From Candidatus Omnitrophota bacterium (lineage in GTDB: Bacteria > Omnitrophota > Gorgyraeia > Gygaellales > Profunditerraquicolaceae), in the NCBI GenBank assembly GCA_030650425.1, contig JAUSED010000005.1:206932-270931 (forward strand): a stretch of 64,000 nt of DNA, given 5' to 3'. The position numbers and the translations under genes were made by a program. A model generated the notes under the pieces. That model saw nothing but the letters and a program-made list of their open reading frames with translations, ran no database searches and was not told where the DNA came from. Shown here in pieces: positions 847 through 63,559 of this stretch; the stretch's first letter is position 1, and each line of letters starts with the position of its first letter.

Positions 847-2409
847 ATGAAAAGATACTTAATTAGTTTTCTAACAGCCCTTGCTGTATTAGGAATAACG
901 GCAAGGGTTTTTTGTTATCCGGTTGACGCGGTAGATATTAGCGGAAAAAAATATTTTCCTGCCGTAAAGGAAGCGATTGTCAAAGCGCAGGAATCAATAA
1001 AGGTTGTAATGTTTGCTATGGAGGCATCTTTATCAAGAGAGGATACAAAACCAAACCAGCTCATTGGCGCGCTTATCGAGGCGAAGAAGCGAGGCGTGGA
1101 GGTAGAAGTTATTTTGGATCAGAATATAGACTTTTTAAAAACAAAGATATGGGAAACTAAAGTTAAAAGTACAAGGGCTTATAAACGCCTCAAAGAAGCA
1201 GGAGTAAAGGTTTATTACGATGAACCGGCTAGATACACTCATGCCAAAACTGTTATTATAGACAAGAAAATAGTCATCTTGGGGAGCACGAACTGGACAG
1301 AAGCCTCATTCGATAACAATATCGAAACAAGCGTCTTGATTAACTCAGAAAAGTTAGCAGGAGAAATTTTAACTTACCTAAAGACTATCAAGATAGATAC
1401 GAAAATAGATGAATACCTTGATTCCATCGGGCCATCGATACCTGTTAGCTGGAAATTCATGGAAAATCTGGCTTTGGCGCCTGAAATGGTAAAATTACAA
1501 GACGAGAGGGCCTTTGATGTTTATCTATACCTGCTTTGGAAATTTAGCGAAAAAATAGGGGACAGTCCCCAAAAGGCGGGGACAGTCCCCTATTTCACGC
1601 TATTCTATGATGATCTTGCCAAATATCTAGGGATTTATGAGGGTTGGAATAGCACAGATTACCGCAGGCAGATTATAAAAGTATTCAAGAAATTAGAGCA
1701 AAGATATAAACTTATAAAGTTTGAGCCGCGGTACGCGAAAGAAGCGACCATAACTTTACTTGATTACGAAAAAAATGGGGACAGTCCCCAAAAGGCGGGG
1801 ACAGTCCCCATTTTTTATGACGAAGAAGGGGATTATTTTGATTTGCCTGAAGACTACTTTAAGCTTGGCTGGAATAGGGAATTGTCTTTAAGGGCTAAAT
1901 TCTGTTATCTGATCAATCTTGCGAACATCGATATAAGCGACCTAAAGCCATACTGGTCAAAAAGCGTAATCACCATCACCAAGCAGTTCGGCGGCATAGG
2001 AAAGAGTGTGATACAGAAAGGAATGGGAGAATTGCGCAGGAATAATTTGCTGGAAGTGAGGTATGATGAATTATCCGGTAAACCCTATGAAGAAAGAAGG
2101 CCTAAGATGTATAAGCTCTTAAGGCTCTACGATCCAAAAGAGCGGGAATTAAGGCTAAAAGGAATGGAAGAGAAATATGGTAAAGAAGTATACGTAAAAG
2201 CAAGAAAATACGCGGAGATAGTCTTCGAAGAGAAGAATCCAGAAGTGATAGAGGACATCATCTTAAAAATGAAAGAATACGGGGATAAAGAAGTAGAGAG
2301 GGCGTTTGGCGAAATTAGCCGCAAAAGCATAGATAACCCCAAGAGGACTTATCTTTATCTAACAAGAATTTTAGGGAGAACATCCGGGGGATTGGGGAAA
2401 CCCCGCTAG
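847..2409 (+). CDS. Secreted phospholipase-D-like (single HKD motif, Nuc-type endonuclease domain) protein with a ~340-aa C-terminal region of unknown function
   Basis: N-terminal signal peptide (MKRYLISFLTALAVLGITA). HKD motif 'YTHAKTVIIDKKIVILGSTNWT' (HxK(x)4D(x)6GSxN). The C-terminal region contains two in-frame 33-nt palindromic repeat insertions, each encoding 'GDSPQKAGTVP'. Confidence 0.7.
   Translation: MKRYLISFLTALAVLGITARVFCYPVDAVDISGKKYFPAVKEAIVKAQESIKVVMFAMEASLSREDTKPNQLIGALIEAKKRGVEVEVILDQNIDFLKTKIWETKVKSTRAYKRLKEAGVKVYYDEPARYTHAKTVIIDKKIVILGSTNWTEASFDNNIETSVLINSEKLAGEILTYLKTIKIDTKIDEYLDSIGPSIPVSWKFMENLALAPEMVKLQDERAFDVYLYLLWKFSEKIGDSPQKAGTVPYFTLFYDDLAKYLGIYEGWNSTDYRRQIIKVFKKLEQRYKLIKFEPRYAKEATITLLDYEKNGDSPQKAGTVPIFYDEEGDYFDLPEDYFKLGWNRELSLRAKFCYLINLANIDISDLKPYWSKSVITITKQFGGIGKSVIQKGMGELRRNNLLEVRYDELSGKPYEERRPKMYKLLRLYDPKERELRLKGMEEKYGKEVYVKARKYAEIVFEEKNPEVIEDIILKMKEYGDKEVERAFGEISRKSIDNPKRTYLYLTRILGRTSGGLGKPR
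1551..1595. repeat. Compound palindromic element, family P copy 1 (GGGGACAGTCCCC-AAAAGGC-GGGGACAGTCCCC flanked by A/T runs), in-frame inside CDS 847..2409
   Basis: Direct observation: aaaaaTAGGGGACAGTCCCCaaaaggcGGGGACAGTCCCCTAttt. The 13-nt unit is a near-perfect palindrome. The 33-nt core equals 11 codons. Confidence 0.85.
1770..1816. repeat. Compound palindromic element, family P copy 2, in-frame inside CDS 847..2409
   Basis: aaaaaaaTGGGGACAGTCCCCaaaaggcGGGGACAGTCCCCAttttttt. It is identical to the core of copy 1 at 1558..1590. Confidence 0.85.
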
Positions 2410-2705: not shown

Positions 2706-3773
2706 TTGCTAGGGGACACTTTCCGTCAAGGCTCTTTCGAAGCCACTCAAAGGAAAGTGTCCCCTAGAGGCTCAAGCCCTGCCAGCAGGGGACATTTTCC
2801 GTCAGGGCTATCAGGGAACTCTTCTAAGGAAAGTGTCCCCTGGGACAAGGCTAAGCTTCAAGAAGAAACCCAAACCCTGCTCAATTACTTCCTCGTAGGA
2901 GTCACCCTCCCAGACTCTATGTTCTGGGTTAACCTACGCCCTGACTCCGAAGACCAGATTATTGACCAATATCTAGAGAAGACTGATGTAGGCAGGATTA
3001 TGCTGGAAGCTGATCTCCAACTCAAGAAAGACACTAGCGCAATGACCTCTCCAGCTACCCCTGAAGGAAGAGAATACTGGGATAGGCTCTATAAGAAGGC
3101 CGCTGATCTCTACGGCTATGACAATGTGACCATCCCCACTCTAACCCGTCCCTGGATTGTCCCGGGTGAGATTATCGTCAGAGAATCCCAAGACTCTGTC
3201 TATGTCTATAAGGCTACGCTTAAAGTCATGCTAGAGCAGGATTACCTCCAAGGAACGGCTATCCGTTATCCTGAGCTTGCTAGCCGTCATCCTGAGCCCC
3301 GCAGGGGCGAAGGATCTAATTCCTTAGATTCTTCCCCTTCGGCTTCGCCTCGGGGTCAGAATGACTATAGTTTTAAAGATATCCGCTCTAAAGCTCTTAA
3401 TGAATACTCCACTCAACTAATCAAAGAACTAATTATTCCTAAACTTACTAAAGAAGTCAACTCATCCAAAAGATATGCTCCCCTAAGACAAGTCTATTAC
3501 TCTTTAATTCTCTCCCGCTGGTTCAAACAGAAGTTTAAGCCAGCAGGGGACGCCCAGATAGTAGGGGACACTTTCCGTCAGGGCTCTAATGAAAGCCTCA
3601 AAAGGAAAGTGTCCCCTACCTTCGTCAGCCTTATTGACTCCAAAAACCTCACTAACCTCATTTCCAAAGACTCTTGGAGCAAAACCGACTATTTCAAGCA
3701 ATACCAAAAATCCTTCTCCGCAGGAGAATACAATATCCAAGAGCCGGTGGTATTTGTGGATGCGGTGAGTTAA
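2706..3773 (+). CDS. Hypothetical protein whose N-terminus and C-terminal region are built from REP-family hairpin repeats (encoded 'GDTFRQGS' segments)
   Basis: 355-aa ORF with plausible coding texture between 2860 and 3540. REP copies at 2710..2766, 2787..2841 and 3562..3618 are all read through in-frame. The true start is uncertain. Confidence 0.4.
   Translation: MLGDTFRQGSFEATQRKVSPRGSSPASRGHFPSGLSGNSSKESVPWDKAKLQEETQTLLNYFLVGVTLPDSMFWVNLRPDSEDQIIDQYLEKTDVGRIMLEADLQLKKDTSAMTSPATPEGREYWDRLYKKAADLYGYDNVTIPTLTRPWIVPGEIIVRESQDSVYVYKATLKVMLEQDYLQGTAIRYPELASRHPEPRRGEGSNSLDSSPSASPRGQNDYSFKDIRSKALNEYSTQLIKELIIPKLTKEVNSSKRYAPLRQVYYSLILSRWFKQKFKPAGDAQIVGDTFRQGSNESLKRKVSPTFVSLIDSKNLTNLISKDSWSKTDYFKQYQKSFSAGEYNIQEPVVFVDAVS
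2710..2766. repeat. REP-like hairpin element, family R copy A (TAGGGGACACTTTCC - 27-nt loop - GGAAAGTGTCCCCTA)
   Basis: Perfect 13-bp inverted repeat. The loop begins GTCAAGGCTCT. Confidence 0.85.
2787..2841. repeat. REP-like hairpin element, family R copy B (GGGGACATTTTCC ... GGAAAGTGTCCCC)
   Basis: 13-bp arms with one mismatch. The loop begins GTCAGGGCTAT. Confidence 0.8.
3562..3618. repeat. REP-like hairpin element, family R copy C, in-frame near the 3' end of ORF 2706..3773
   Basis: TAGGGGACACTTTCC-GTCAGGGCTCTAATGAAAGCCTCAAAA-GGAAAGTGTCCCCTA. Confidence 0.85.
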
Positions 3774-3786
3774 TATACACATATAG

Positions 3787-3833
3787 AAAAAATGGGGACA
3801 GTCTCCAAAAGGCGGGGACAGTCCCCATTTTTT
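3787..3833. repeat. Compound palindromic element, family P copy 3 (intergenic; one C->T change in the first unit)
   Basis: aaaaaaTGGGGACAGTCTCCaaaaggcGGGGACAGTCCCCAtttttt. The ~8 nt on each flank are also similar to copy 2. Confidence 0.85.
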
Positions 3834-3845
3834 CGCCTATTCTGC

Positions 3846-3873: not shown

Positions 3874-3957
3874 ATTACCCAATTCGTGTTAACCATCCTT
3901 ATTGCAAGGCTTTTTAGGCCTATCGATTGTAAAGGGACAGTTTCTAAGCACCTACAG

Positions 3958-4008
3958 TAGGGGACACTTTCCAATAAATAGTAAACGCTCGTAGGAAAGT
4001 GTCCCCTA
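3958..4008. repeat. REP-like hairpin element, family R copy D, in the 5' leader of the hydrogenase operon
   Basis: TAGGGGACACTTTCC - 21-nt AT-rich loop - GGAAAGTGTCCCCTA. A degenerate half-site GGGACAGTTTCT lies at 3933..3944. Confidence 0.85.
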
Positions 4009-4025
4009 CTGCTAAAGATACTACT

Positions 4026-13466: not shown

Positions 13467-14063
13467 ATGAACTACTCAAGTTTGTTACATAACGATATGA
13501 CAGGATTACTCGCTAAGCTCGGAGATTTAGGCGTTTTTATAGCCATGTTCCTGGAGTCATGCATCGCGCCTATACCTTCGGAAGTAATCATCATCAGCGC
13601 CGGCGCAATCGGGTTCCCTTTAGCTTCAGTGGTTATTTTTGGTTCGTTAGGCTCGACTTTGGGGGCAATGGTGGGATACGCGTTAGGAAGATATGCCGCT
13701 ATGCCGGTATTATTGAAATTCGGCAGGTTCATTCTGATTAAACCGCACCATATTTATAAAGCGGAAGAATTCGCCAAAAAATACGGGGTGGCCAGCGTCT
13801 TTATTGGGAGGGTCCTTCCGATAATTCCCTTTAAGGTTTTTTCGATTGCCGCGGGGATTACCCATATTCCGTTTACGCCGTTTGTATTCTGCACCCTGCT
13901 TGGTGTTGTGCCGAGAATATTCCTCTTGGCTCTTTTTGGCGCGGCGATCGTCAAATATACAAAGGTAGTCTTTATTTTAATAATTTTTGCCGTACTGATA
14001 TTTTTGGCGCATAGGATATTACGTTATATTTATGGTGTAGGAAAGCATAAAACACTTTCCTAA
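13467..14063 (+). CDS. DedA/VTT-domain (SNARE-associated) family membrane protein
   Basis: 198-aa membrane protein with the typical DedA pattern (…FLESCIAPIPSEVII…GRVLPIIPF…). Confidence 0.65.
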   Translation: MNYSSLLHNDMTGLLAKLGDLGVFIAMFLESCIAPIPSEVIIISAGAIGFPLASVVIFGSLGSTLGAMVGYALGRYAAMPVLLKFGRFILIKPHHIYKAEEFAKKYGVASVFIGRVLPIIPFKVFSIAAGITHIPFTPFVFCTLLGVVPRIFLLALFGAAIVKYTKVVFILIIFAVLIFLAHRILRYIYGVGKHKTLS

Positions 14064-17481: not shown

Positions 17482-17490
17482 TTTCCCTAG

Positions 17491-17570
17491 TAGGGGACAC
17501 TTTCCTTTAGTAGTTTAGTAAGAGCCCTGACGGAAAGTGTCCCCTAGTTGTGAGTTAGGAAAGTGTCCCC
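17491..17570. repeat. REP-like hairpin element, family R copy E (inverted orientation relative to A-C) plus an extra right half-site
   Basis: TAGGGGACACTTTCC…AGAGCCCTGAC-GGAAAGTGTCCCCTA. The loop ends with the reverse complement of the GTCAGGGCTCT seen in copies A-C. An additional GGAAAGTGTCCCC lies at 17558..17570. Confidence 0.85.
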
Positions 17571-17629
17571 TGAATGGTAGAGAGAAAATTTCCTTGCAAA
17601 AGCAAAACTTGAATGTTAAGCTGTGCTTA

Positions 17630-18253
17630 ATGAAGGCCCGCCTTTTACTAGCCCTATTTTTTTGCCTGCTTTTGCCAGTTCTAACTTTTGCCGCCCAAGC
17701 TTCTTCCTCAAGGCCTGCCAGGCTTAGGCAAGCTGTAATTCCCATAACCATAAATAATGGCGCCAATAATACTAATTCAACCACAGTAACCCTGAATCTC
17801 TCTGTGGATAACCTCTCAGGCCAGCCTCCTTTTCAGATGTCTTTTTCCAACAACAACTATCTCTGGTCAACCTTATTTCCCTTTAGCCCAAGCAAAACCT
17901 GGGAACTATCTCCTTTGGGAGATACTTCAGGAGACGCTAAGCTGGATATGGGAGATGCGATGCTCATTGCCCAATACCTGGCGCATATACGCTCTCTCAC
18001 CCCTGAGCAGATAGCTGTAGCTGATGCTAACCAGATCAAAGGAATTGATATAGGTGACGCTATGTTGATTGCCCAGCGCGTGAATAAGAAAAGAGTCCTG
18101 CCTATCGGCGAAGGAGCGCGCACGGTCTATGTTAAATTTAAGGATAGTCTCGGAAACTGGTCAGATATTTACTCTGCCGCGATTATCCTGGATACTCAAG
18201 GCCCAACTTTAGAGATCACCTCGCCTCAAGAAGGAGCAGTAATCAAAGAATGA
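17630..18253 (+). CDS. Secreted dockerin-like repeat protein ending in a truncated Ig-like segment
   Basis: Signal peptide MKARLLLALFFCLLLPVLTFAAQA. Two dockerin/EF-hand-like Ca-binding repeats: 'GDTSGDAKLDMGDAMLIAQYL' and 'DANQIKGIDIGDAMLIAQRV'. The start was moved to the ATG at 17630, after the REP element. The gene shares an ATGA overlap with the RHS gene. Confidence 0.5.
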   Translation: MKARLLLALFFCLLLPVLTFAAQASSSRPARLRQAVIPITINNGANNTNSTTVTLNLSVDNLSGQPPFQMSFSNNNYLWSTLFPFSPSKTWELSPLGDTSGDAKLDMGDAMLIAQYLAHIRSLTPEQIAVADANQIKGIDIGDAMLIAQRVNKKRVLPIGEGARTVYVKFKDSLGNWSDIYSAAIILDTQGPTLEITSPQEGAVIKE

Positions 18254-21200
18254 AGAAAATCAGCGCGTTTTTTATCAGCCTTGGCTTAATCCTCTCCGTA
18301 GTTAGCCTTGTCTTTGCCCAAAACGCCGATGTGTCGGGAGAGTGGTGGATAGATCCAACTGTCTATCCGATTATAAGCGCTAAAAGAGTACAAACGGACA
18401 TTATCCATCTGCCCACAGGAGATAAAACAGGTATTACTGAATCCACTGTAGCTGCCTCATTTGCGGCTTCAAGCGGTTTTTATGATGTAACTCAAAATAG
18501 CAACGGGGATATTAGTGCCTCAAGGTCGATAACGGATGCCGGCGGAACGGTTATCATAAGTACAATGAAAGGGAAGGTCACCGGCAATACTGTAACTTTT
18601 ACCATAGATAATAAGATGATATTCCCTTCAGACGCTATTACCGGATTTAGTGGTTATGAAGCTACCAATCTTGCCTGCTCCGGAACAATAAAAACCTCTG
18701 ATTTACCAAACACTATTGATTATACCTATAGCGGTACTTATTACCTTTACTCTCAGATGTCTACTCCTTGGGCCGATAGTTTTACTGTTACTACCGCAAC
18801 ATCTGAGAATACCGCCTCTCTTAGAATAACAAAATCCTCACCTCCGCCTCCGCAGCAACCAAACCCTCCTCCAGATTCTTCTAACGGCGAATTTTATAGC
18901 GATCCGCAAAATAGCGTAGGGGAGCCGATTAACTCGGTTACCGGGAATATGTATATCATTACCCCGGATTTAACCCTTTCGGGTAAAGGAATGAATTTTG
19001 CCTTTAGCCGCACCTATAATAGCCAGTCTGCCAGTAACACCAGTGAATCCGGCCCCTTAGGTTATGGCTGGACGCATAGTTATAATCTTTATCTTACGCA
19101 AGATACCCAGAATAAGCTTGTCAAAATAAAAGATGAGGAGGGGAAGGGCTATTTATTCGCGGATAATCAAGACGGTACATTTGTCTCCCAGCGCGGCGAA
19201 TATTCCATTCTCACCAAAGACTCATCTAACTTCATCTGGAGAAAAAAGGACGGCAAGCAATATATCTTTGATTTAGCCGGCAAGCTTACCCAGATCAAAG
19301 ACCGCAATAATAATACTATCAATCTTTCCTATAATAATCAAAACCAACTAACCTCGGTTACTGATACTTACGGCCGAAAGATAGAACTAACCTACTCAGA
19401 AGCTAGAATCAGTTCTCTAATTGATCCTTCAAGTAGATCCTTTATCTATACTTACGATACTCAAGGGAATTTATCTGCTGCCACTGATCCTCTGGGTAAC
19501 AGTACTACTTATACCTATGACTCCCAACATAACTTAACCAAGCAAACTGACCCCCTAAACCAATCGATCTATTATACCTACGATAGCTTAAACCGCTGCA
19601 CTTCCTCATCCGGAGAGAATAATGCCGGCAGGGTGGATTTGGTTTTTGATCCAGCGAATCACCAAACTACTATCACCGATTCTAAGAACAATAGCGCTAT
19701 CCATTACTACAATGATGATTCCCTGATTATCAAGGTTAAGAACACTCAGGGAAGCGAAAGTACCTCTATCTGGGATAATAATTTTAACCTGGTCTCCCGC
19801 ACTGATGCTTTAGGCCGCGCCACTCAGATGGAGTATGATGCAAAGGGTAACCTAACCAAGGTTACTGATGCGGATAATAAGATTACCTCTTTTACTTATG
19901 AGCCCGACTTTAATCTATTACTGACTTCCACCGACGCTCAAAGCAATCTCACCACCTATACCCGCGACGCCAGTGGTAACCCCACCAAGGTAACTGACGC
20001 CTACAACAACTCCACTAATTACACCTATAATAACGCAGGCCAAGTAACCAGTGTTCAAAACGCCTTGGGAAACTCTACTAATTTTACTTATGATACCCAA
20101 GGTAACCTGATTCAGGTAAAAGACGCTTTAGGCAATCTAACTACCTTTAGTTATGATACTATAGGTAACCTACTCCAATCCAAAGACGCCCTAAGTAATA
20201 TCACCAAGTTTACCTATGATAACCTGAATCAGTTGACTAAGGTTACTTACCCGGATGATACCACTCTAACTTACGTCTATGACTCAGCAGGTAACCGTAT
20301 TTCCGTAACCGATACTCTTGGCAATACCACCACCTCTACCTTTGATCAATTCCAGCGCATCACTTCCACCACTGATGCTTTAGGTAATAGTATTAACTAC
20401 GTTTATGACAGCGAAGGCAACTTAACCTCGCTTACCGATCAAAACAATAACCAGACTACCTACACCTACGACAGCTTAAACCGCCTAATCCTAGAGACCG
20501 ACGCCCTCGGCAACAAAAAGCAATACCAATATGATGCTGTAGGTAACCGCACTACTTACATTGATGCCAAAAATCAAAGCACTAGTTATACCTATGACAA
20601 ACTCAACCGTCTGACTAAAATCACCTATCCAGATAGAGATGTGAGTTATACTTATGATTCCTTAGGCAGGCGTCTAACGATGTTGGATGAGCGCGGCACA
20701 ACTAATTACACCTATGATAAATTAGGCCGCCTGACGCAAGTTGACGGCCCAAAAGCTAATGATACAGTTAGCTATACCTATGATAAGCTTGGTAACCGCT
20801 TGACTATGACTGATCCAACAAACAAAATCACTTCCTACTCCTACGATGCGCTCAACCGCCTGACTTCGATCACTGACCCGCAAGCTAAAGTTACTAGCTA
20901 CACCTATGATACTTTAGGTAATTTAACCAACCTAATTTATCCCAACGCTACTAAAACAACCTATACCTACGATACCTTAAACCGCCTGCTTAAACTTACC
21001 GAACAGCTAGCCACAAGCCCCTATACTAAGTTAGCTGAGTTTAGCTATACCTATGATCAATTAGGCAGGAGAACTCAAGTTAATCTTTTAGACGCAAGCC
21101 AGATCAATTATACCTATGATGCTTTAAGCCAACTCACTCAAGAGAACAAAACTTACTCGACCAGCCCTTATCAGATTAGCTATAGCTATGACCCTGCAGG

Positions 21201-22503
21201 TAACCGCCTAGAGATGATTAATCAAGGTGTAAAACACGCTTATTCCTATAATTCCCTAAATCAACTCACCGAGGAAAGTTTTAGCGGCGGCAGCAATCCC
21301 ACTAAAATCACAGTTACCGGAAGAGCCTCGGATGCAAGCGGGATCAAACAGGTAACCGTTAACAATATAACCGCAGCCTTAGCAGGGAATAGCTTTACCT
21401 GCGCGGATGTTACGCTTACACCCGGGCCAAATACCCTCACTGTCATAGCTACTGATCAGGCCGGTAACAGCACTACCAAAATACTCCACGTCACCTACAG
21501 TCCTACTACTAAGCTTATCTATACCTATGACAATAACGGAAGCTTGATTAGCAAGACAGGATCAGGCGATGCTCTTAACTTAAGCTATGACTCAACTAAC
21601 CGGCTCACCCGTTTTAAAAACTCTCAGCTTGATGAGACTTATCAATATGACGCAGAGGGTAAAAGAATCGCTAAGCAATCCGGCTCAAGCACAACAAACT
21701 ACCTTTATGATGGCTTAAATGTAATTCAGGAGAACACTTCAATTGGCTCAACTAACTACACCCGTAATCCCAATGCTCCGGGAGGTATCGGTGGTATAAT
21801 CAACCAGCAGTCTCCAAGTAATGTATCCTCCTATTATCATTACGACGGCTTAGGCAGCGTAACTAATTTAACCAACTCAACAGGAACAAATACCCAAACC
21901 TACAGCTACGATGCCTTTGGTAATTTACAGGGACTGTCCTCGAAGGGAACTGTCCCTGATCTTCGCGGATTCCTGACTAAAGAAGCTGACTCAACCGGTC
22001 TAAGTTACTTCGGCGCAAGATACTACGACCCCAAGATCGGAAGATTCATCACTCAGGACCCGAGCGGTATGAGTGATGGGCCGAATTTGTACTTGTATGT
22101 TAAAAATAATCCTGTAAATTTTGTGGATGCGTGGGGGTTGTGTAAGAATCCCTCGCAGTTAATCCTTCAACAATTATCGCCTTCAGATATAATCTTTGGA
22201 GTTAAACAATACTTAAAAGTTCTTGATTTACTCTCGCCACAACTACGCGCTACTTTAGATACAATAAGTAGTTTTTCTTCAAATAAGGGGCCATTGGAGA
22301 CGCTTGGCGGAATAGGTGGTGGATTATTGGGCGGGATTGGAGGATCAGCTATAGGGAGCGTAGAGGGTCCTTTTGGAACCTTTGTTATTGGCACAATAGG
22401 TTCATATCTAGGTTCTAAATTTGTATCAGATAAAGGTAAAGTCGCAGACGAATATTATTACCAAATAATTTATGAATTAATAACTAGAAAGGAAAATAAA
22501 TGA
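18250..22503 (+). CDS. RHS/YD-repeat polymorphic toxin with an Ig-like domain, RHS core (…DPxGL-type cleavage site 'VDAWGL') and a ~120-aa glycine-zipper C-terminal toxin tip
   Basis: 1417 aa. Signal peptide; dozens of 'YTYDxxGN(L/R)' YD repeats; RHS-associated core 'YHYDGLGSV…ARYYDPKIGRFITQDPSGMSDGPNLYLYVKNNPVNFVDAWGL'; C-terminal 'GGIGGGLLGGIGGSAIGSVEGPFGTFVIGTIGSYLGS'. Confidence 0.85.
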   Translation: MKKISAFFISLGLILSVVSLVFAQNADVSGEWWIDPTVYPIISAKRVQTDIIHLPTGDKTGITESTVAASFAASSGFYDVTQNSNGDISASRSITDAGGTVIISTMKGKVTGNTVTFTIDNKMIFPSDAITGFSGYEATNLACSGTIKTSDLPNTIDYTYSGTYYLYSQMSTPWADSFTVTTATSENTASLRITKSSPPPPQQPNPPPDSSNGEFYSDPQNSVGEPINSVTGNMYIITPDLTLSGKGMNFAFSRTYNSQSASNTSESGPLGYGWTHSYNLYLTQDTQNKLVKIKDEEGKGYLFADNQDGTFVSQRGEYSILTKDSSNFIWRKKDGKQYIFDLAGKLTQIKDRNNNTINLSYNNQNQLTSVTDTYGRKIELTYSEARISSLIDPSSRSFIYTYDTQGNLSAATDPLGNSTTYTYDSQHNLTKQTDPLNQSIYYTYDSLNRCTSSSGENNAGRVDLVFDPANHQTTITDSKNNSAIHYYNDDSLIIKVKNTQGSESTSIWDNNFNLVSRTDALGRATQMEYDAKGNLTKVTDADNKITSFTYEPDFNLLLTSTDAQSNLTTYTRDASGNPTKVTDAYNNSTNYTYNNAGQVTSVQNALGNSTNFTYDTQGNLIQVKDALGNLTTFSYDTIGNLLQSKDALSNITKFTYDNLNQLTKVTYPDDTTLTYVYDSAGNRISVTDTLGNTTTSTFDQFQRITSTTDALGNSINYVYDSEGNLTSLTDQNNNQTTYTYDSLNRLILETDALGNKKQYQYDAVGNRTTYIDAKNQSTSYTYDKLNRLTKITYPDRDVSYTYDSLGRRLTMLDERGTTNYTYDKLGRLTQVDGPKANDTVSYTYDKLGNRLTMTDPTNKITSYSYDALNRLTSITDPQAKVTSYTYDTLGNLTNLIYPNATKTTYTYDTLNRLLKLTEQLATSPYTKLAEFSYTYDQLGRRTQVNLLDASQINYTYDALSQLTQENKTYSTSPYQISYSYDPAGNRLEMINQGVKHAYSYNSLNQLTEESFSGGSNPTKITVTGRASDASGIKQVTVNNITAALAGNSFTCADVTLTPGPNTLTVIATDQAGNSTTKILHVTYSPTTKLIYTYDNNGSLISKTGSGDALNLSYDSTNRLTRFKNSQLDETYQYDAEGKRIAKQSGSSTTNYLYDGLNVIQENTSIGSTNYTRNPNAPGGIGGIINQQSPSNVSSYYHYDGLGSVTNLTNSTGTNTQTYSYDAFGNLQGLSSKGTVPDLRGFLTKEADSTGLSYFGARYYDPKIGRFITQDPSGMSDGPNLYLYVKNNPVNFVDAWGLCKNPSQLILQQLSPSDIIFGVKQYLKVLDLLSPQLRATLDTISSFSSNKGPLETLGGIGGGLLGGIGGSAIGSVEGPFGTFVIGTIGSYLGSKFVSDKGKVADEYYYQIIYELITRKENK

Positions 22504-22916
22504 TGAGGGTTGTTTTAACGAATATAAAAACCGCAATCGTTTTCTTAGTGGAAATTATATGTATTTTTATGATTATAGCGTTTTCGGCGCTTTATTTCAT
22601 ATTTAAAAAAGGAGATTTTATATTTTTTGTAACTAGTATTTTGTTATTTAGTACCGGGTGTATTGTTTTAGATTTAATTAGAAGAAACAAAATCCCACTT
22701 TTTGTGACTAATATTACAAAGGTAGATAATTCTTCGAGATTAATGTTGGGTTTGCTTTGCATAGCCCTTGGTTTAAGTGGATTTTATTATGCTTATAGTA
22801 ATCCTAATGATAAATTGCTAGGTATTTTTGGGGGATTATTATTTGGTCTTGGTGGTATCGGTTTACTTATCCCGAATGAAAAAGAAAATAAAACAAGAAA
22901 AGAGAATAAGGAATAA
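22500..22916 (+). CDS. Putative RHS immunity protein (small 4-TM membrane protein)
   Basis: 138-aa ORF overlap-coupled (ATGA) to the 3' end of the RHS toxin gene; four hydrophobic helices. Assigned from polymorphic-toxin gene architecture only. Confidence 0.4.
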   Translation: MMRVVLTNIKTAIVFLVEIICIFMIIAFSALYFIFKKGDFIFFVTSILLFSTGCIVLDLIRRNKIPLFVTNITKVDNSSRLMLGLLCIALGLSGFYYAYSNPNDKLLGIFGGLLFGLGGIGLLIPNEKENKTRKENKE

Positions 22917-22920
22917 CTAC

Positions 22921-22969
22921 AAGACACACAAGACACAGACAGTTTCTCCAAGACACAGACAGTTTCTCA
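22921..22969. repeat. Tandem direct repeat (2.4 x 20 bp, AAGACACAGACAGTTTCTCC)
   Basis: Direct observation: aagacacac + AAGACACAGACAGTTTCTCC + AAGACACAGACAGTTTCTCA. The unit resembles the R-family arm (ACAGACAGTTTC versus GGGACACTTTCC). Confidence 0.8.
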
Positions 22970-23023
22970 GCTAATCGGGACAGTGTACCTCGCTCAAGAT
23001 AGAAGGTGTACCTTTTGAGGAAA

Positions 23024-23518
23024 TCATATCTGTAGCTGATCTAGTAACCAAATGAATGAACTTTTGGCCAAAACTCTTTCTTGGCAGCTGCTCCAGCGGT
23101 ATTCTCCCGCTGAGTTTACAAGCTTTGCTCTGACGGGATTGAGTTCAACATAATGGGTACAGTCGATTAGATAGTTATCTTTGACAATCACCTTGCTCTT
23201 AAAGCGCCCTTGCCATAGATGGCCTACTTTCTGATAGCGTTTATTGAAGTATGCGGTGTAGGCTCTGGATAGCCCTTGCATAAACTTAGCCATATTGGCG
23301 GAAAGCCTCGGCTCTCCGATTAGGTGAATATGGTTTGGCATAAGGCAGTAGCCATACAACAGGAAACCGAATTTCCTTTTGAATCTTCTTAGGAATATAA
23401 GGTATCTCTTATAATCATTTTCATCAAAGAATACCTGTTGTCTTTGGTTGCCGCGAATGGTAATGTGATAACAAGCGTTTTTGATTAGTAGCCTTGGGCC
23501 TGTAGGCATAAGCATCAC
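23024..23518 (-). CDS. IS200/IS605-like Y1 HUH transposase of the RAYT (TnpA-REP) type
   Basis: N-terminal 'YHITIRGNQRQQVFFDENDYKRYL'; HUH motif 'NHIHLI'; catalytic-Tyr region 'YRWSS'. Length of 164 aa is typical of RAYTs. Confidence 0.8.
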   Translation of the reverse strand: MMLMPTGPRLLIKNACYHITIRGNQRQQVFFDENDYKRYLIFLRRFKRKFGFLLYGYCLMPNHIHLIGEPRLSANMAKFMQGLSRAYTAYFNKRYQKVGHLWQGRFKSKVIVKDNYLIDCTHYVELNPVRAKLVNSAGEYRWSSCQERVLAKSSFIWLLDQLQI

Positions 23519-23648
23519 CTCCTACATTAATAGACGTAAGATAGCCAGGAATCTAACGCAGATTTGTTAAAAAACTAGAAAAGGGTACACTTTCCAGCGT
23601 GGCATAGGTACAGTTTCCCGATTGGAACGGAAAGTGTCTGTAAGAAGA

Positions 23649-25628
23649 ATGTCGATAATCAAACGGGTAAAAAATCTAATCATAGGAAAATCGCGGAATC
23701 CCCAAGATTCTGCGATTTTCCACAAGCTATCGCTGATCGCCTTTTTTGCCTGGATAGGCTTGGGCGCGGATGGCTTATCTTCATCATGTTACGGACCTCA
23801 AGAAGCTTTCTTGGCATTGGGGAGCCATACTTATTTAAGCATTTTTGTCGCCTTAGGGACTGTTTTTACCATTTTTATTATCAGCACAAGCTATTCTCAG
23901 ATCATCGAATTATTCCCGGGAGGCGGCGGAGGGTATCTGGTAGGAAGTAAGTTACTTTCGCCTACGCTGGGGATGATTTCCGGATGCGCCCTGCTGATTG
24001 ATTACGTGCTGACAATCGCAATTTCTATCGCCAGCGGCGCGGACGCATTATTCAGTTTTATGCCTATGGGTTTGCACGCCTATAGATTAGCTTTCGCGGC
24101 GATCGTAGTCTTTTTACTGATGGTTTTGAATATGCGCGGAATAAAAGAATCGGTGCTCATCCTTACGCCGATTTTCCTGATCTTTATCGCCACCCATGTT
24201 TTTATTATTTTCTATAGTTTAATTAAACATTCATCAGCTTCAGGCGCGTTAGTAACTTCTGTTACCAATGAGGTGCATAATTCTGTTAATCAATTGGGTT
24301 TGTGGGGGGCTATTTTTCTAGTACTTAAGGCTTATAGCATGGGAGCAGGCACCTTTACCGGAATTGAAGCAGTGAGTAACGGCGTTCCCGTTTTACGCGA
24401 CCCCAAGGTGCAGACCGCCAAGCGCACGATGCGCTATATGGCCGTATCGCTCTCTTTTCTGGTTTTGGGTTTAATGATCGCCTATCTACTCTATCAAGTT
24501 ACCCTGCAACCCGGTAAAACATTAAACGCTGTCCTCTTTGAACAAGTTACCGCGGGGTGGGGAAAGTTCGGTTACGCGTTTGTTTTGATTACCTTGTTTT
24601 CTGAGGCTACCTTGCTTTTTGTCGCGGCGCAAGCCGGTTTTCTTGACGGCCCGAGGGTTTTGGCGAATATGGCCAATGATCGCTGGTTCCCTACGCGTTT
24701 TTCGGCGTTAAGCGACAGGCTGGTAACGCAGAATGGCATATTGATTATGGGTGGCCTGGCTTTATTGGTTATGTTTATAACAGGCGGTTCGGTTAAACTT
24801 TTGGTAGTTCTGTACAGTATCAACGTTTTTATTACCTTTTGTTTCTCTCAGGCGGGTATGGTGCGTCATTGGTGGCAGGCGCGTTCGCAGGTTAAGGATT
24901 GGTTAAAGAAATTCTTTATCAATGGCACAGGGCTTATTTTGTGCGCCTTCATACTTGTCTCTATGGTAATTATGAAATTTAACGAAGGAGGATGGATTAC
25001 CCTCTTTTTTACCGGAGCGGCGGTTTCTCTAGCTTTGTTGATCAAGCGGCATTACTACGCTACGGCCAAACTTTTACATAGATTGAACAGCTTGGTTACT
25101 GTCGCCGAATCTGCCGAAGAATCGCTGGCTAATCTTCCCTTAGGCGCGGGATTGGAAACAAAACCGGATCCTAAGGCTAAAACCGCGGTCCTCTTGATCA
25201 GTGGTTTTAACGGGATTGGGCTGCATACTTTATTTGGGATAATCAGATTATTCGGCGGAGTGTTTAAAAATTTTATCTTTGTTCAGGTGGGCGTAGTTGA
25301 TGCCGGTAATTTTAAGGGAAGGGATGAAATCGGGAGGATCGAGAGCGAAGTTAAAAATGATTTGGCCCGTTATATAAGGTTTATGAATAAGCAGGGTTTT
25401 TATGCCGAAGGGGTATTTGAAGTAGGTACGGATGTGGTGGAAGAGGTGGGTAATATCGCGCCTAAAATACTCGCGCGCTTTCCGTACGCAGTATTTTTCG
25501 GCGGACAACTAATTTTTCCTAAAGATTCGTTTGCTGTGCGTTTCCTGCATAACTATACTGTATTTGCCATGCAGAAGAAGCTGTACCGCGAAGGCATACC
25601 GTTTGTTATATTGCCAATCAGGGTATAG
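23649..25628 (+). CDS. APC-superfamily (amino acid/polyamine/organocation) permease with a ~200-aa cytoplasmic C-terminal domain
   Basis: 12 predicted TM helices with APC-like N-terminal motifs (…GADGLSSSCYGPQEAF…). The start was moved to the ATG at 23649, after REP copy F. Confidence 0.65.
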   Translation: MSIIKRVKNLIIGKSRNPQDSAIFHKLSLIAFFAWIGLGADGLSSSCYGPQEAFLALGSHTYLSIFVALGTVFTIFIISTSYSQIIELFPGGGGGYLVGSKLLSPTLGMISGCALLIDYVLTIAISIASGADALFSFMPMGLHAYRLAFAAIVVFLLMVLNMRGIKESVLILTPIFLIFIATHVFIIFYSLIKHSSASGALVTSVTNEVHNSVNQLGLWGAIFLVLKAYSMGAGTFTGIEAVSNGVPVLRDPKVQTAKRTMRYMAVSLSFLVLGLMIAYLLYQVTLQPGKTLNAVLFEQVTAGWGKFGYAFVLITLFSEATLLFVAAQAGFLDGPRVLANMANDRWFPTRFSALSDRLVTQNGILIMGGLALLVMFITGGSVKLLVVLYSINVFITFCFSQAGMVRHWWQARSQVKDWLKKFFINGTGLILCAFILVSMVIMKFNEGGWITLFFTGAAVSLALLIKRHYYATAKLLHRLNSLVTVAESAEESLANLPLGAGLETKPDPKAKTAVLLISGFNGIGLHTLFGIIRLFGGVFKNFIFVQVGVVDAGNFKGRDEIGRIESEVKNDLARYIRFMNKQGFYAEGVFEVGTDVVEEVGNIAPKILARFPYAVFFGGQLIFPKDSFAVRFLHNYTVFAMQKKLYREGIPFVILPIRV

Positions 25629-62957: not shown

Positions 62958-63470
62958 ATGAGACACACAATTTCAGTTTTAGTGGAAAATAAGTTTGGCG
63001 TACTGGCGCGGATCGCGGGATTATTCAGCGCCCGCGGGTATAATATCGCCTCTTTAGCGGTTTCGGAGACCTTAGATCCGGCTATCTCTTATATGACGAT
63101 AGTCGTTGAGGCAAAAGATGAAAAGGTCCTCGAACAGATCAAGAAACAGTTGAATAAGTTGATCGATGTGATTACGATTACTGATTTTACCAAGAAGGAG
63201 CACGTTGACCGCGAGCTTATTTTAGCTAAAGTAAGTTATTCCGCGAAAGATAAGACTAAGCTGGAAAATATTTTTAATAAATATGTCGGCAAGATCATCC
63301 AACGTAAAGGCGATATCGCGATTATCGAGGCAGTAGGGGATAATCAGCAGATAAGGTCCTTGCTTGAAGAATTGAATAAGTTTGGAATCCAGGAATTGGT
63401 GAGGACAGGGAAATTGGCAATCGGGGCAATCGGGGACGCTTCCCAAGGGGACACTCTCCGGAGATTTTAG
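62958..63470 (+). CDS. ilvN: Acetolactate synthase small (regulatory, ACT-domain) subunit
   Basis: 'HTISVLVENKFGVLARIAGLFSARGYNI' ACT-domain N-terminus. Confidence 0.85.
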   Translation: MRHTISVLVENKFGVLARIAGLFSARGYNIASLAVSETLDPAISYMTIVVEAKDEKVLEQIKKQLNKLIDVITITDFTKKEHVDRELILAKVSYSAKDKTKLENIFNKYVGKIIQRKGDIAIIEAVGDNQQIRSLLEELNKFGIQELVRTGKLAIGAIGDASQGDTLRRF

Positions 63471-63559
63471 GTAAAAATTATCAAAAAATAGTGAAAATAA
63501 GCATTTTTTAAAAGTAGAGTGGTACTTTGGGGAGCGTCCCCTAGTAAAGGAGGATATAA

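Follow-up and report, generated by a model that had tools for sequence, protein, structure and literature searches.

A RAYT/TIRYT-type Y1 HUH transposase gene of Omnitrophota with conserved inverted terminal repeats and its likely relationship to dispersed hairpins

Can a single transposase gene account for hairpins that are dispersed through the DNA around it? The locus studied here, a Y1 HUH gene lying between inverted flanking sequences, raises this question. It is located in a 64-kb stretch of Omnitrophota DNA (the window) that also carries two families of hairpins, R and P; the contig from which this stretch comes is 338 kb or longer. The initial annotation took the gene for a RAYT, its flanks for degenerate copies of R, and the enzyme for the explanation of both families. 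Genes of the RAYT/TIRYT type are widespread. Within this type, E. coli TnpA-REP is to our knowledge the only one whose biochemistry has been studied, and we know of no substrate for the subclass 2.1/TIRYT branch.

The features of the locus are as follows (terminal repeats are denoted LE, upstream, and RE, downstream, relative to the gene).

22917..22968, minus strand: reiterated outer end of the downstream repeat, a 9-mer x2.1 (22919-22937) plus the 20-mer CAAGACACAGACAGTTTCTC x2.0 (22929-22968)
22955..23016, minus strand: downstream terminal inverted repeat (RE), with boxes A', B' and C'
22955-22968: RE Box A', ACAGACAGTTTCTC (letters of the plus strand)
22973-22989: RE Box B', AATCGGGACAGTGTACC (letters of the plus strand)
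23002-23012: RE Box C', GAAGGTGTACC (letters of the plus strand)
23024..23509, minus strand: intact Y1 HUH gene of the RAYT/TIRYT type, 161 aa
23510..23579, minus strand: conserved leader from the upstream repeat to the start codon, with GTTAGAT, ACGTCTATTA and the ribosome-binding site AGGAGGTGAT
23580..23644, minus strand: upstream terminal inverted repeat (LE), with boxes A, B and C
23583-23595: LE Box C, GGAAAGTGTACCC (gene orientation)
23607-23623: LE Box B, AATCGGGAAACTGTACC (gene orientation)
23629-23641: LE Box A, CTT-ACAGACACTTTCC (gene orientation)

Read from a GTG codon, the open reading frame spans 23024..23518 and encodes 164 aa. No record matches this form, whereas the 161-aa form is on record, and because the homologs are 161 aa long we place the start codon at the ATG at 23509. 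The exact sequence of the protein is recorded at one place only. Its sole Pfam domain is Y1_Tnp (1.7e-16), and Pfam finds no C-terminal HTH domain in the 161 aa. The NCBIfam model REP_Tyr_transpos scores 80.8 bits (cutoff 80), and transpos_IS200 scores 17.6 bits (cutoff 55). A profile search of the PDB returned E. coli TnpA-REP (4er8) at 7.5e-8 and ISDra2 TnpA at E=0.03; a profile query was needed, since phmmer with the single sequence gave no match in the PDB. The same structure was the best PDB match when an AlphaFold model (pLDDT 84.8) was searched with Foldseek (TM 0.78, against ~0.5 for IS608 and ISDra2), at a sequence identity of 19%. Altogether, these searches support the annotation of the gene as a RAYT-class Y1 HUH enzyme.

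The HUH motif of the protein is H60-I-H62, within NHIH (N59-H60-I61-H62), and is followed by W99-Q100, by Y120 in Y120-V-E-L-N-P, and by a tail with W139-S-S. NHIH and YVELNP are invariant or nearly so across 23 homologs, with YIELNP as the family consensus. The catalytic tyrosine is Y120, which aligns with Y115 of E. coli TnpA-REP; it is not the tyrosine of the YRWSS motif named in the initial annotation, WSS being an accessory tail motif. Of the residues that contact GTAG in the E. coli enzyme, W94 and Q95 (E. coli numbering) are retained, whereas S105, K106 and V109 stand in place of E100, H101 and R104.

To which class does the enzyme belong? It has the HUH motif and the Y---NP tyrosine on a Y1_Tnp fold, and related inverted flanks around the gene (REPtron-like), all of which are traits of class 2 TnpA-Y1 (RAYT sensu lato). 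Within this class, NHIH, WQ, YVELNP and SS agree with the subclass 2.1 row of a published table (Table 1 of PMC6006769), whose motif set comprises NH[VYF]H and W[EQ], either YIELNP or Y[IV]HLNP, and an SS pair conserved in the proximal tail. By its motifs and nearest relatives we therefore assign the window protein to subclass 2.1, as a short, HTH-less member; we equate this subclass (Quentin et al. 2018, PMC6006769) with RAYT group 1 (Bertels et al. 2017, PMC5581495) and with TIRYT. The distal HTH of subclass 2.1 (Bac_DnaA_C, HTH_23 or HTH_28; median length 238 aa) is absent from the 161 aa, and subgroup 2.1.2 has been described as mixed for the presence of a distal C-terminal domain. The closest relatives outside the clade are 190-340 aa long, and those of ~318 aa bear Bac_DnaA_C. 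The traits of IS200/IS605 subclass 1.1 (Y---Q, equivalog score, direct hairpins) were not found, nor were the GT[AG]G-foot REP flanks and GTAG-contact residues of REPIN-associated RAYTs. Another trait of the latter, a commonest flanking 16-mer that is abundant elsewhere, is missing as far as the 64-kb window goes, in which the flank 16-mers do not recur beyond the local tandem duplication.

We next turn to the flanks. The sequences quoted in the initial annotation all lie where it had placed them (GGGACAGTGTACC at 22977-22989, GGGTACACTTTCC at 23583-23595, GGTACAGTTTCCC at 23607-23619 and GGAAAGTGTCTGT at 23629-23641), and the inverted arrangement around the gene is stronger than was described: instead of a set of 13-mers, the two sides form one imperfect inverted repeat of 62 nt (22955-23016 and 23580-23641, 73% complementary). 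Each repeat has three related boxes, with the general forms A = (AC)AGACACTTTCC, B = AATCGGGAAACTGTACC and C = GGAAAGTGTACCC. An nhmmer profile made solely of upstream flanks, taken from 20 other loci, matches both the LE (E=5.8e-16) and the RE (E=5.1e-11). The conserved unit ends near 23644 and its ends are sharp, CT(A/T)ACAGAC... and ...GTCT(G). The tandem 20-mer at the downstream edge, previously counted at 2.4 copies, amounts to 2.0 copies, the second of which contains Box A'; short tandem repeats at this edge are found in 28/72 related loci (39%) vs 4.75% of control segments. GTAG is absent from the feet of the flanks. The motif GGGGWSAS, reported for many TIRYT repeats (PMC3733652), has no exact copy in the window flanks, where GGGTACAC and CGGGACAG are each one mismatch away; it is exact in the flanks of 17/70 related loci, as it is in R and in P.

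Box A of the LE can pair with either Box B or Box C. As single-stranded DNA the LE folds weakly (-8.8 kcal/mol, z -1.9 to -2.6), and the RE folds no better than shuffled sequences (z +0.2 to +0.6). Across 35 loci, 75.5% of cells in the A:B helix are paired, vs 31-55% when the boxes are slid against each other, and 8/12 pairs show compensatory changes. This covariation supports the A:B helix; Box A, with Box B or C, makes up a predicted subterminal hairpin maintained by compensatory changes.

The three-box terminal repeat accompanies the gene, upstream and downstream, in ~80 related Omnitrophota loci, mostly without R nearby. We therefore set aside the view of the flanks as degenerate R copies in favour of a conserved repeat that travels with the gene. 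The repeat stays with the gene across 52-90% protein identity; at one locus whose protein is 85% identical, the same repeat occurs at the same 563-nt spacing. With third codon positions at 70-81% identity, the repeats reach 79-90%, and beyond the unit the sequences are unrelated. The leader is conserved in most loci of the clade and is 78-81% identical to those of relatives with the same 70-81% at third codon positions; a consensus scan found no sigma-70 promoter in it. These comparisons show that gene, leader and repeats have been inherited as a single unit across the Omnitrophota clade, as judged from sequence conservation. RHS-gene synteny is shared with a genome whose RAYT is 85% identical, which may point to vertical inheritance.

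The window holds one RAYT copy, with no second Y1 gene in the 64 kb or in 4.6 kb beyond. A scan of contigs of GTDB representative genomes with the single protein gave 11 loci, at a best identity of 68%, which places the source species outside these representatives, and no 12-mers were over-represented in 20-kb loci around 68%-identical relatives. P0003, present in five contigs, proved to be a single locus and not several insertion sites. Locus L017, whose protein is 90% identical, has two full copies of the unit and one partial copy within 3.5 kb, two further loci (L026 and L037) have partial second copies, and gene-less derivatives occur as a solo LE (L003) and as a fused LE and RE (L010). 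The L017 copies show, at the level of sequence, that the putative mobile unit can be multi-copy.

Such duplicates, the differing genomic contexts in which the unit is found and its sharp boundaries would all fit a plain insertion sequence, autonomous, with a Y1 transposase gene between terminal inverted repeats, which copies nothing but itself and whose likeness to R is incidental; Bertels group 1 is also the most IS-like of the RAYT groups. We consider this improbable. Over 600 nt the two full copies at L017 show 100% identity, yet their REs differ at 6/62 positions and each resembles that of a different relative. This weakens the duplicates as proof of fresh transposition and points to gene conversion between older copies. 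Moreover, the cassette is single-copy here and its flanks are unrepeated, its ends are inverted whereas those of IS200/IS605 are direct, and the IS200 score is far below the cutoff, with Y---NP rather than Y---Q. Finally, R and the flanks resemble each other reciprocally and with strong statistical support, as described below.

The exact arm of R, GGGGACACTTTCC, occurs 10 times in the window, where 0 are expected, in five hairpins and one solo arm:

2709..2767, plus strand: R hairpin 1, TAGGGGACACTTTCC, 27-nt loop, GGAAAGTGTCCCCTA; z -6.2
2786..2842, plus strand: R hairpin 2, whose 5' arm, GGGGACATTTTCC, has one mismatch
3561..3619, plus strand: R hairpin 3, in frame within ORF 2706..3773; z -7.1
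3957..4009, plus strand: R hairpin 4, with a distinct 21-nt loop; z -8.9
17490..17571, minus strand: R hairpin 5 (17490-17547, opposite orientation) and solo arm GGAAAGTGTCCCCT (17558-17571)

R is an inverted dimer of the 15-nt unit TAGGGGACACTTTCC, which fits the TIRYT motif GGGGWSAS, with spacers of 21-27 nt. The arms of hairpin 4 extend to CAGTAGGGG...CCCCTACTG, with a GTAG/CTAC double foot. The residues encoded by hairpin 3 are missing from homologs of ORF 2706..3773. Compared with shuffled sequences, both R and P fold into strong hairpins. When genes at the edge were extended in the source genome, the Logan contigs were short and terminated in P or R; since the two families break short-read assemblies, they are multi-copy. 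In ~4.6 kb beyond the window there was no new R, P or Y1 gene. A Logan contig from the same sample ends inside the R hairpin 5 element.

How is R related to the flanks? Flank arms differ from R arms at 1-3 of 13 positions, and the ~248 nt of flank contain 4 matches to an R arm at up to 3 mismatches, vs 0.05 expected (Poisson 2.7e-7). The longest word shared by Box A and R is the 12-mer GACACTTTCCGT. Of the 13 occurrences of the core ACACTTTCC/GGAAAGTGT in the window, 10 are in R, two in the LE and one at 14052. Beyond the window, across ~80 independent loci, 13-mers resembling R arms show an 85-fold enrichment at distances of up to 250 nt from RAYT genes, with 14 at up to 1 mismatch in 42 kb of RAYT flanks vs 2 in 632 kb elsewhere. 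An LE profile run on the 64-kb window recovers both flanks first and then R arms alone, and nhmmer matches between R and the flanks are reciprocal. This enrichment and these reciprocal matches indicate a shared origin or a shared recognition of R and flanks, which we regard as likely on sequence grounds, and R arms belong to the same box family as the boxes of the cassette. The part of the initial annotation that tied R to the RAYT flanks is thus borne out; the part concerning P is not, as 13-mers of the P type (GGGGACAGTCCCC) are not enriched in RAYT flanks (0 flank vs 2 non-flank hits at up to 1 mismatch), which led us to reject P as a relative of the flanks. All that remains is a loose formal resemblance of palindromes of the GGRRACAGTYYCC type to the GGAAACAGTTTCC boxes of the comM-linked subclade.

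In a canonical REPIN-RAYT system, a single-copy, domesticated RAYT would be the dedicated mobiliser of R and P, and the flanks would be old, mutated copies of R. The RAYT-class protein, its single recorded place, the RHS synteny with its hint of vertical inheritance, the ACACTTTCC core that the inverted flanks share with R and the multi-copy state of R and P, deduced from broken assemblies, are all consistent with such a system. Nevertheless, we think this account unlikely. It does not explain why the flank architecture occurs in ~80 loci, most of them without R nearby, why the window shows no abundance of flank 16-mers, or why P shows no enrichment; in addition, the protein is of the subclass 2.1/TIRYT type, whereas the groups associated with REPINs are 2 and 3, and its close relative at L017 is multi-copy.

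A more plausible competitor, though still a tentative one, is that R (and P) are served by another Y1 enzyme, whose gene lies outside the window, and that the window cassette shares only box ancestry with R. Such an enzyme could be a clade paralogue whose boxes are GGGACACTTTCC, as at L030, or else a RAYT from another subclass that recognises GTAG. With its GTAG/CTAC double foot and a stem that starts with three G-C pairs at its base, R resembles REPs that have been described, as canonical or 'double foot', in other subclasses; a (G)TAG foot speaks against the window enzyme as the mover of R, given that the protein lacks equivalents of E100, H101 and R104. The flanks of L030, L038 and L095 are nearer to R than those of the window, and 14/15 positions of the L030 downstream flank TAAGGGACACTTTCC agree with the R arm. 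Furthermore, two organisms with RAYTs that are only 66% identical and with different Box A sequences have identical R arms, contrary to what tight co-evolution of enzyme and repeat would predict. Several RAYTs per genome, each with its own repeat family, are known elsewhere. However, neither the window nor the 4.6 kb beyond it contains a second Y1 gene, and at L046 the LE of a 66%-identical RAYT of the same clade has an exact R hairpin at a distance of 55 nt; R-type hairpins are rare at the related loci, occurring at 1 of ~80.

Taken together, we think it probable that the locus is a ~690-bp cassette (22955-23644) of the REPtron/TIRtron kind, comprising an intact gene for a putative class-2 Y1 HUH ssDNA nuclease/transposase, a conserved leader belonging to it and, at each end, a 62-nt terminal repeat in inverted orientation, with R as its likely non-autonomous relatives. 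From the sequence comparisons, R elements would most likely be recognised by the window enzyme or a close paralogue. If it works as E. coli TnpA-REP and IS608 TnpA do, the enzyme would bind the repeat in its folded form where DNA is single-stranded at the replication fork, cut at the outer edge of the repeat by means of Y120 and a metal site at H60/H62, and then rejoin the strands. A bolder version, which we hold to be doubtful, is that an HTH-less TIRYT lineage is active in Omnitrophota, cutting and rejoining at the outer ...GTC/TG edge, leaving tandem reiterations from the cleavage point (which would be a new footprint) and seeding R dimers that insert in frame into protein-coding genes. If this were true, the cassette would not only move itself but also drive a REPIN-like population in a candidate phylum of ultra-small cells.

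Otherwise the window locus is ordinary, a known kind of domesticated or semi-selfish element in a new phylum, and it extends transposase-plus-hairpin systems to Omnitrophota. It offers a compact candidate substrate, the 62-nt three-box repeat with its covariation-supported hairpin, to which the same genome adds a related family of perfect hairpins (R) and the clade adds ~80 natural variants for comparison. With substrate, hairpins and variants at hand, a study of binding and cleavage in the subclass 2.1 branch would be straightforward.

Among known systems, the locus is most readily compared with the TIRYT/TIRtron (Di Nocera et al. 2013, PMC3733652). The two share a class-2 Y1 HUH enzyme with NH(I/V)H, WQ, a YIELNP-type motif and SS, terminal inverted repeats around the gene in place of REPs that are canonical and abundant, a GGGGWSAS-type motif in the associated repeats (which R and P carry exactly and the flanks with one mismatch), moderately abundant repeat families in dimers or clusters, and a gene that is duplicated now and then. 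Subclass 2.1 has been reported without REP association (PMC6006769). Unlike its typical members, the window protein has no C-terminal Bac_DnaA_C/HTH within its 161 aa; its repeats, with 62 nt, three boxes and a hairpin backed by covariation, also differ, and its host phylum, Omnitrophota, lies outside the coverage of the TIRYT, TnpA-Y1 and RAYT-group surveys.

E. coli TnpA-REP (RayT/YafM, 4er8) is the top profile and fold match, with tyrosine and HUH aligned. The inverted flanks related to dispersed hairpins recall both its REPtron and the REPIN-RAYT systems of Pseudomonas (groups 2 and 3), whose REPINs R resembles in having two inverted units and a spacer. However, E100, H101 and R104 of the E. 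coli enzyme are lost here, the flanks are long three-box repeats instead of REP hairpins, and the flank words are not the abundant genomic words of REPIN-RAYT systems. With the IS200/IS605 transposases (IS608, ISDra2) the locus shares the HUH/Y1 fold, subterminal hairpins near the ends and the lack of an obvious target-site duplication. It differs from them in having Y---NP instead of Y---Q and an IS200 score well under the cutoff, in its inverted ends, where IS200/IS605 ends are direct on one strand, and in its low copy number and the absence of tnpB.

The flanks of the RAYT gene pair as one 62-nt inverted repeat (22955-23016 against 23580-23641, 73% complementary). All of the flank strings quoted in the initial annotation were found where it placed them, and its claim that inverted, arm-like flanks bracket the gene turned out stronger than it had been worded: about 248 nt of flank hold four matches, with at most three mismatches, to the arm of R, one of two families of dispersed hairpins in the window (0.05 expected, P about 3e-7). 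The tandem 20-mer beside the gene is also present, at 2.0 rather than the proposed 2.4 copies. The flanks had further been taken for degenerate R copies. We found instead that they belong to a conserved cassette, in which a three-box repeat recurs with the gene in related loci. The cassette has the following parts, where LE and RE are its upstream and downstream terminal repeats and boxes and leader are given for LE in gene orientation, as they read across related loci.

22919-22937, tandem 9-mer, 2.1 copies
22929-22968, tandem 20-mer, 2.0 copies
22955-23016, RE
23024-23509, minus strand, RAYT gene
23580-23641, LE
Box A, (AC)AGAC(A/G)CTTTCC
Box B, AATCGGGA(A/C)A(C/G)TGT(A/C)CC
Box C, GGAAAGTGT...
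Conserved leader between Box C and ATG, GTTAGA..., ACGTCTATTA, AGGAGG

For the flank comparison, about 100 loci encoding relatives at 52-90% identity were collected. LE nearly always runs Box A, 5-6 nt, Box B, about 12 nt, Box C, leader and ATG, and the downstream flank consists of the three boxes inverted. One locus with an 85% identical RAYT (L001) carries a 62-nt repeat of the window type at the same spacing as in the window, 563 nt. A profile trained solely on upstream flanks taken from 20 further loci recovered the window LE (E=5.8e-16) and, inverted, the window RE (5.1e-11). In an alignment of four copies the edges are sharp: similarity begins at CT(A/T)ACAGAC and stops at ...GTCT(G), and the DNA beyond is unrelated. 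Identity among copies is 79-90% in the repeats and 78-81% in the leader, while in the coding sequence it is 70-81% at third codon positions and 88-95% at positions 1 and 2. The cassette entirely occupies the gap between an APC-family amino-acid permease gene and a small ORF that follows an RHS toxin gene, antisense to both, and the permease start (GTG 23634 or ATG 23649) lies within, or just beside, the outer end of LE (region 23622-23650).

Boxes A and B form a 12-bp helix, in which 75.5% of cells were paired across 35 loci, against 31-55% in slid controls. Eight of its 12 pairs show compensatory changes in these loci (for instance TTTCC/GGAAA vs CCCTT/AAGGG vs CGCTG/CAGCG), and at most 1 in 500 shuffles matched these values. 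As single-stranded DNA the window LE has a modest fold (-8.8 kcal/mol, z -1.9 to -2.6), RE has none beyond shuffles (z +0.2 to +0.6), and R and the second dispersed family, P, fold very strongly as hairpins (z -6 to -9). Short tandem reiterations immediately beyond the ...GTC end of RE are found at 28 of 72 loci, compared with 95 of 2000 control segments (4.75%). Their units are 6-35 nt long and mostly begin with TG (e.g. L017 10531-10650, L023, L047 and L046); the 20-mer and 9-mer repeats of the window (22917-22968) are one instance. This excess may possibly be a trace of cleavage and rejoining activity. Similar reiterations lie outside some upstream ends (L030, L047, L079, L093).

The RAYT ORF (23024..23518, minus strand) would encode 164 aa from a GTG start. 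A length of 161 aa and the start MPTGPR are shared by more than 100 close homologs, so the ATG at 23509 is the real start. The protein matches Pfam Y1_Tnp (1.7e-16) and reaches 80.8 bits against the NCBIfam REP-associated tyrosine transposase model (cutoff 80). A profile search with 23 homologs found E. coli TnpA-REP (4er8) at E 7.5e-8, and the AlphaFold model (pLDDT 84.8) matches 4er8 over its whole length with a TM of 0.78. The IS200/IS605 family is excluded as home of the gene: the IS200 equivalog was not reached (17.6 bits, cutoff 55), ISDra2 TnpA was found at just E 0.03 in the profile search, and the IS608 and ISDra2 transposases gave a TM of about 0.5. In the 4er8 alignment the catalytic Tyr115 of E. 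coli TnpA-REP falls on Y120 in YVELNP. The YRWSS motif pointed out in the initial annotation is therefore present as an accessory tail motif, not as the catalytic one. The HUH/Y1 catalytic set is intact.

The superfamily is very large, with 25,047 representatives at E <=1e-10 among 1.84 billion searched. The motif set of the window protein, NHIH / WQ / Y(I/V)ELNP / SS, is assigned to TnpA-Y1 subclass 2.1 in Table 1 of Quentin et al. (PMC6006769), who treat it as equivalent to Bertels group 1 and to the TIRYTs described by Di Nocera et al. Outside the clade, the closest relatives measure 190-340 aa; at about 318 aa they end in a C-terminal Bac_DnaA_C helix-turn-helix (HTH), the hallmark of subgroup 2.1.2 in the Quentin et al. 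classification. From this motif set and this domain in the nearest relatives, we place the window protein in subclass 2.1 as a short member lacking the HTH, or beside that subclass as a sister.

The window holds one RAYT copy, and its exact protein sequence is on record at a single place only. Since the 85% identical relative adjoins an RHS/YD toxin gene in the equivalent position, inheritance in place is suggested. In the closest relative (90%, L017/L018), whose genomic context is unlike that of the window, two full cassettes are separated by 2 kb, and a third, partial one consists of LE, leader and 22 codons. No differences separate the two full copies in their first 600 nt, yet their REs differ at 6 of 62 positions, one resembling that of the window and the other that of L001; this pattern points to probable gene conversion between older copies. 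Gene-less derivatives were found as a solo LE at a distance of 2.5 kb from the L003 RAYT and as a 92-nt LE+RE fusion (L010); L026 and L037 have partial second copies. The cassette has sharp ends, a conserved subterminal hairpin and, in relatives, multiple copies and gene-less derivatives. The whole cassette is, or has been, mobile, and can yield small non-autonomous derivatives.

Several neighbourhoods are of note. A protein encoded near the RAYT is 100% identical to NCBI Q7K98_02715, from a 338-kb contig of a Candidatus Omnitrophota MAG. In the window, 18250-22916 encodes an RHS/YD-repeat protein of 1417 aa and then, immediately beside the cassette, a 138-aa membrane ORF, possibly an immunity protein; the RHS neighbourhood recurs beside the 85% identical relative. 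An AbiEii-type toxin gene lies at the left window edge (89-826). One RAYT subclade (L007, L008, L009, L010, L055, L059, L064, L074, L075, L083, L084, L086, L094 and others) has palindromic boxes GGAAACAGTTTCC and no leader, and its RAYT always directly follows the 3' remnant (~170 aa, with the end ...AIQYRSLD) of a comM/yifB-type Mg-chelatase gene. A TraG-like gene upstream of the L010 RAYT is a hint that comM may harbour an integrative element.

Ten exact copies of the 13-mer GGGGACACTTTCC are present in the window (0 expected) and make up five R hairpins and a solo arm. R hairpins have the form TAGGGGACACTTTCC, 21-27 nt, GGAAAGTGTCCCCTA: a variable spacer parts two 15-nt units that are invariant and inverted to each other, the architecture of a REPIN or TIR dimer. 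The dispersed elements are as follows.

2709-2767, R hairpin 1
2786-2842, R hairpin 2
3561-3619, R hairpin 3
3957-4009, R hairpin 4
17490-17547, R hairpin 5
17558-17571, solo R arm
1552-1596, 1771-1815 and 3786-3834, P elements (GGGGACAGTCCCC, AAAAGGC, GGGGACAGTCCCC)

R is an insertion. Within a conserved Omnitrophota protein, hairpin 3 occupies 57 nt of a variable linker, in frame, and the residues it encodes have no counterpart in most homologs. Short-read contigs from the sample of the window organism terminate inside R and P, which are therefore multi-copy. The first 4 kb of the window are a hot spot of hairpin elements. Here ORF 2706..3773 is what remains of a protein with no assigned function that is conserved in Omnitrophota at 320-530 aa; two R hairpins replace its N-terminal ~90 residues, and its C-terminus is cut a few codons short of a P element (region 2706-3834).

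R and the cassette boxes share words: the window has 13 copies of the 9-mers ACACTTTCC / GGAAAGTGT (10 of them in R, two in LE, one at 14052), and the 12-mer GACACTTTCCGT is common to Box A and R. Across about 80 non-redundant loci, R-arm-like 13-mers with at most one mismatch number 14 in the 42 kb within 250 nt of RAYT genes, compared with two in the other 632 kb (85-fold); with at most two mismatches, the counts are 63 and 19. Boxes of some relatives are near-identical to the R arm, as in L030, where TAAGGGACACTTTCC matches 14 of 15 positions. The only other window matches of the LE profile, all weak (E 0.02-0.25), are R arms and an R-arm-like 13-mer adjoining R hairpin 4, and the best non-R matches of an R profile in 740 kb of loci are RAYT flanks. 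In one other organism (L046, RAYT 66% identical), an R hairpin with exact arms and another loop lies 55 nt from the LE. R arms start GGGGACAC, which fits the GGGGWSAS motif of TIRYT terminal repeats (Di Nocera et al., PMC3733652). Together, these lines of evidence place R in the box family of this enzyme clade, and the dispersed hairpins share that family with the cassette. Between ilvN and ilvC, 63432-63543 holds a further GGGG-type imperfect palindrome pair, GGGGACGCTTCCC-AA-GGGGACACTCTCC, about 70 nt, GGGGAGCGTCCCCTA, whose second unit differs from the R arm at a single position.

Alternatively, R could have its true partner in a different Y1 gene of this genome, paralogous or not, for three reasons. 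None of the flank 16-mers is repeated elsewhere in the 64-kb window; an abundance of such words is the diagnostic of RAYT groups 2 and 3, which are REPIN-associated. The R foot is (G)TAG on a stem base of three G-C pairs, as in the canonical or double-foot REPs that other subclasses have (PMC6006769), and the E. coli residues that touch the GTAG foot, E100, H101 and R104 (PMC6006769), are S, K and V in the window protein; W94 and Q95 are conserved. Finally, R arms are identical between two organisms whose RAYT boxes differ. That this RAYT mobilizes R, as first proposed, is plausible but unproven.

The proposed link to P found no such support. P is a 47-nt palindrome, AAAAAATGGGGACAGTCCCC-AAAAGGC-GGGGACAGTCCCCATTTTTT (z about -7 to -9), that is not enriched in RAYT flanks at about 80 loci, and its sole remaining resemblance to the cassette is a generic GGGGWSAS fit. 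Two P copies fall in frame within the PLD-like ORF 847..2409, where they encode GDSPQKAGTVP; a comparable stretch, GLSPKGTVP, is seen in a homolog of the neighbouring gene (P0123). Two GC-rich stem-loops, CCGCGGGCTAAAGCCCGCGG and CCGCACCCTGAAGGGTGCGG, lie just 3' of the stop codon of this ORF (2400-2500). A third hairpin kind, GTCATCCTGAGCCCCGCAGGGGCGAAGGATC ... GGGGTCAGAATGAC (3255-3360), is a ~34-aa in-frame insertion missing from every aligned homolog of ORF 2844..3773.

By analogy with E. coli TnpA-REP and IS608 TnpA, the enzyme would bind the folded repeat on single-stranded DNA, cut beside it through a 5'-phosphotyrosine at Y120 with a metal site at H60/H62, and then rejoin the strands.

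No publication describing REP or RAYT systems from Omnitrophota came up in our literature search. The closest solved structure to the window protein is E. coli TnpA-REP, and the closest described entity to the locus is the TIRtron/TIRYT (subclass 2.1, group 1), a known class to which the locus belongs. It differs from published TIRYTs in having no HTH tail, in its structured three-box repeat and in coming from Omnitrophota.
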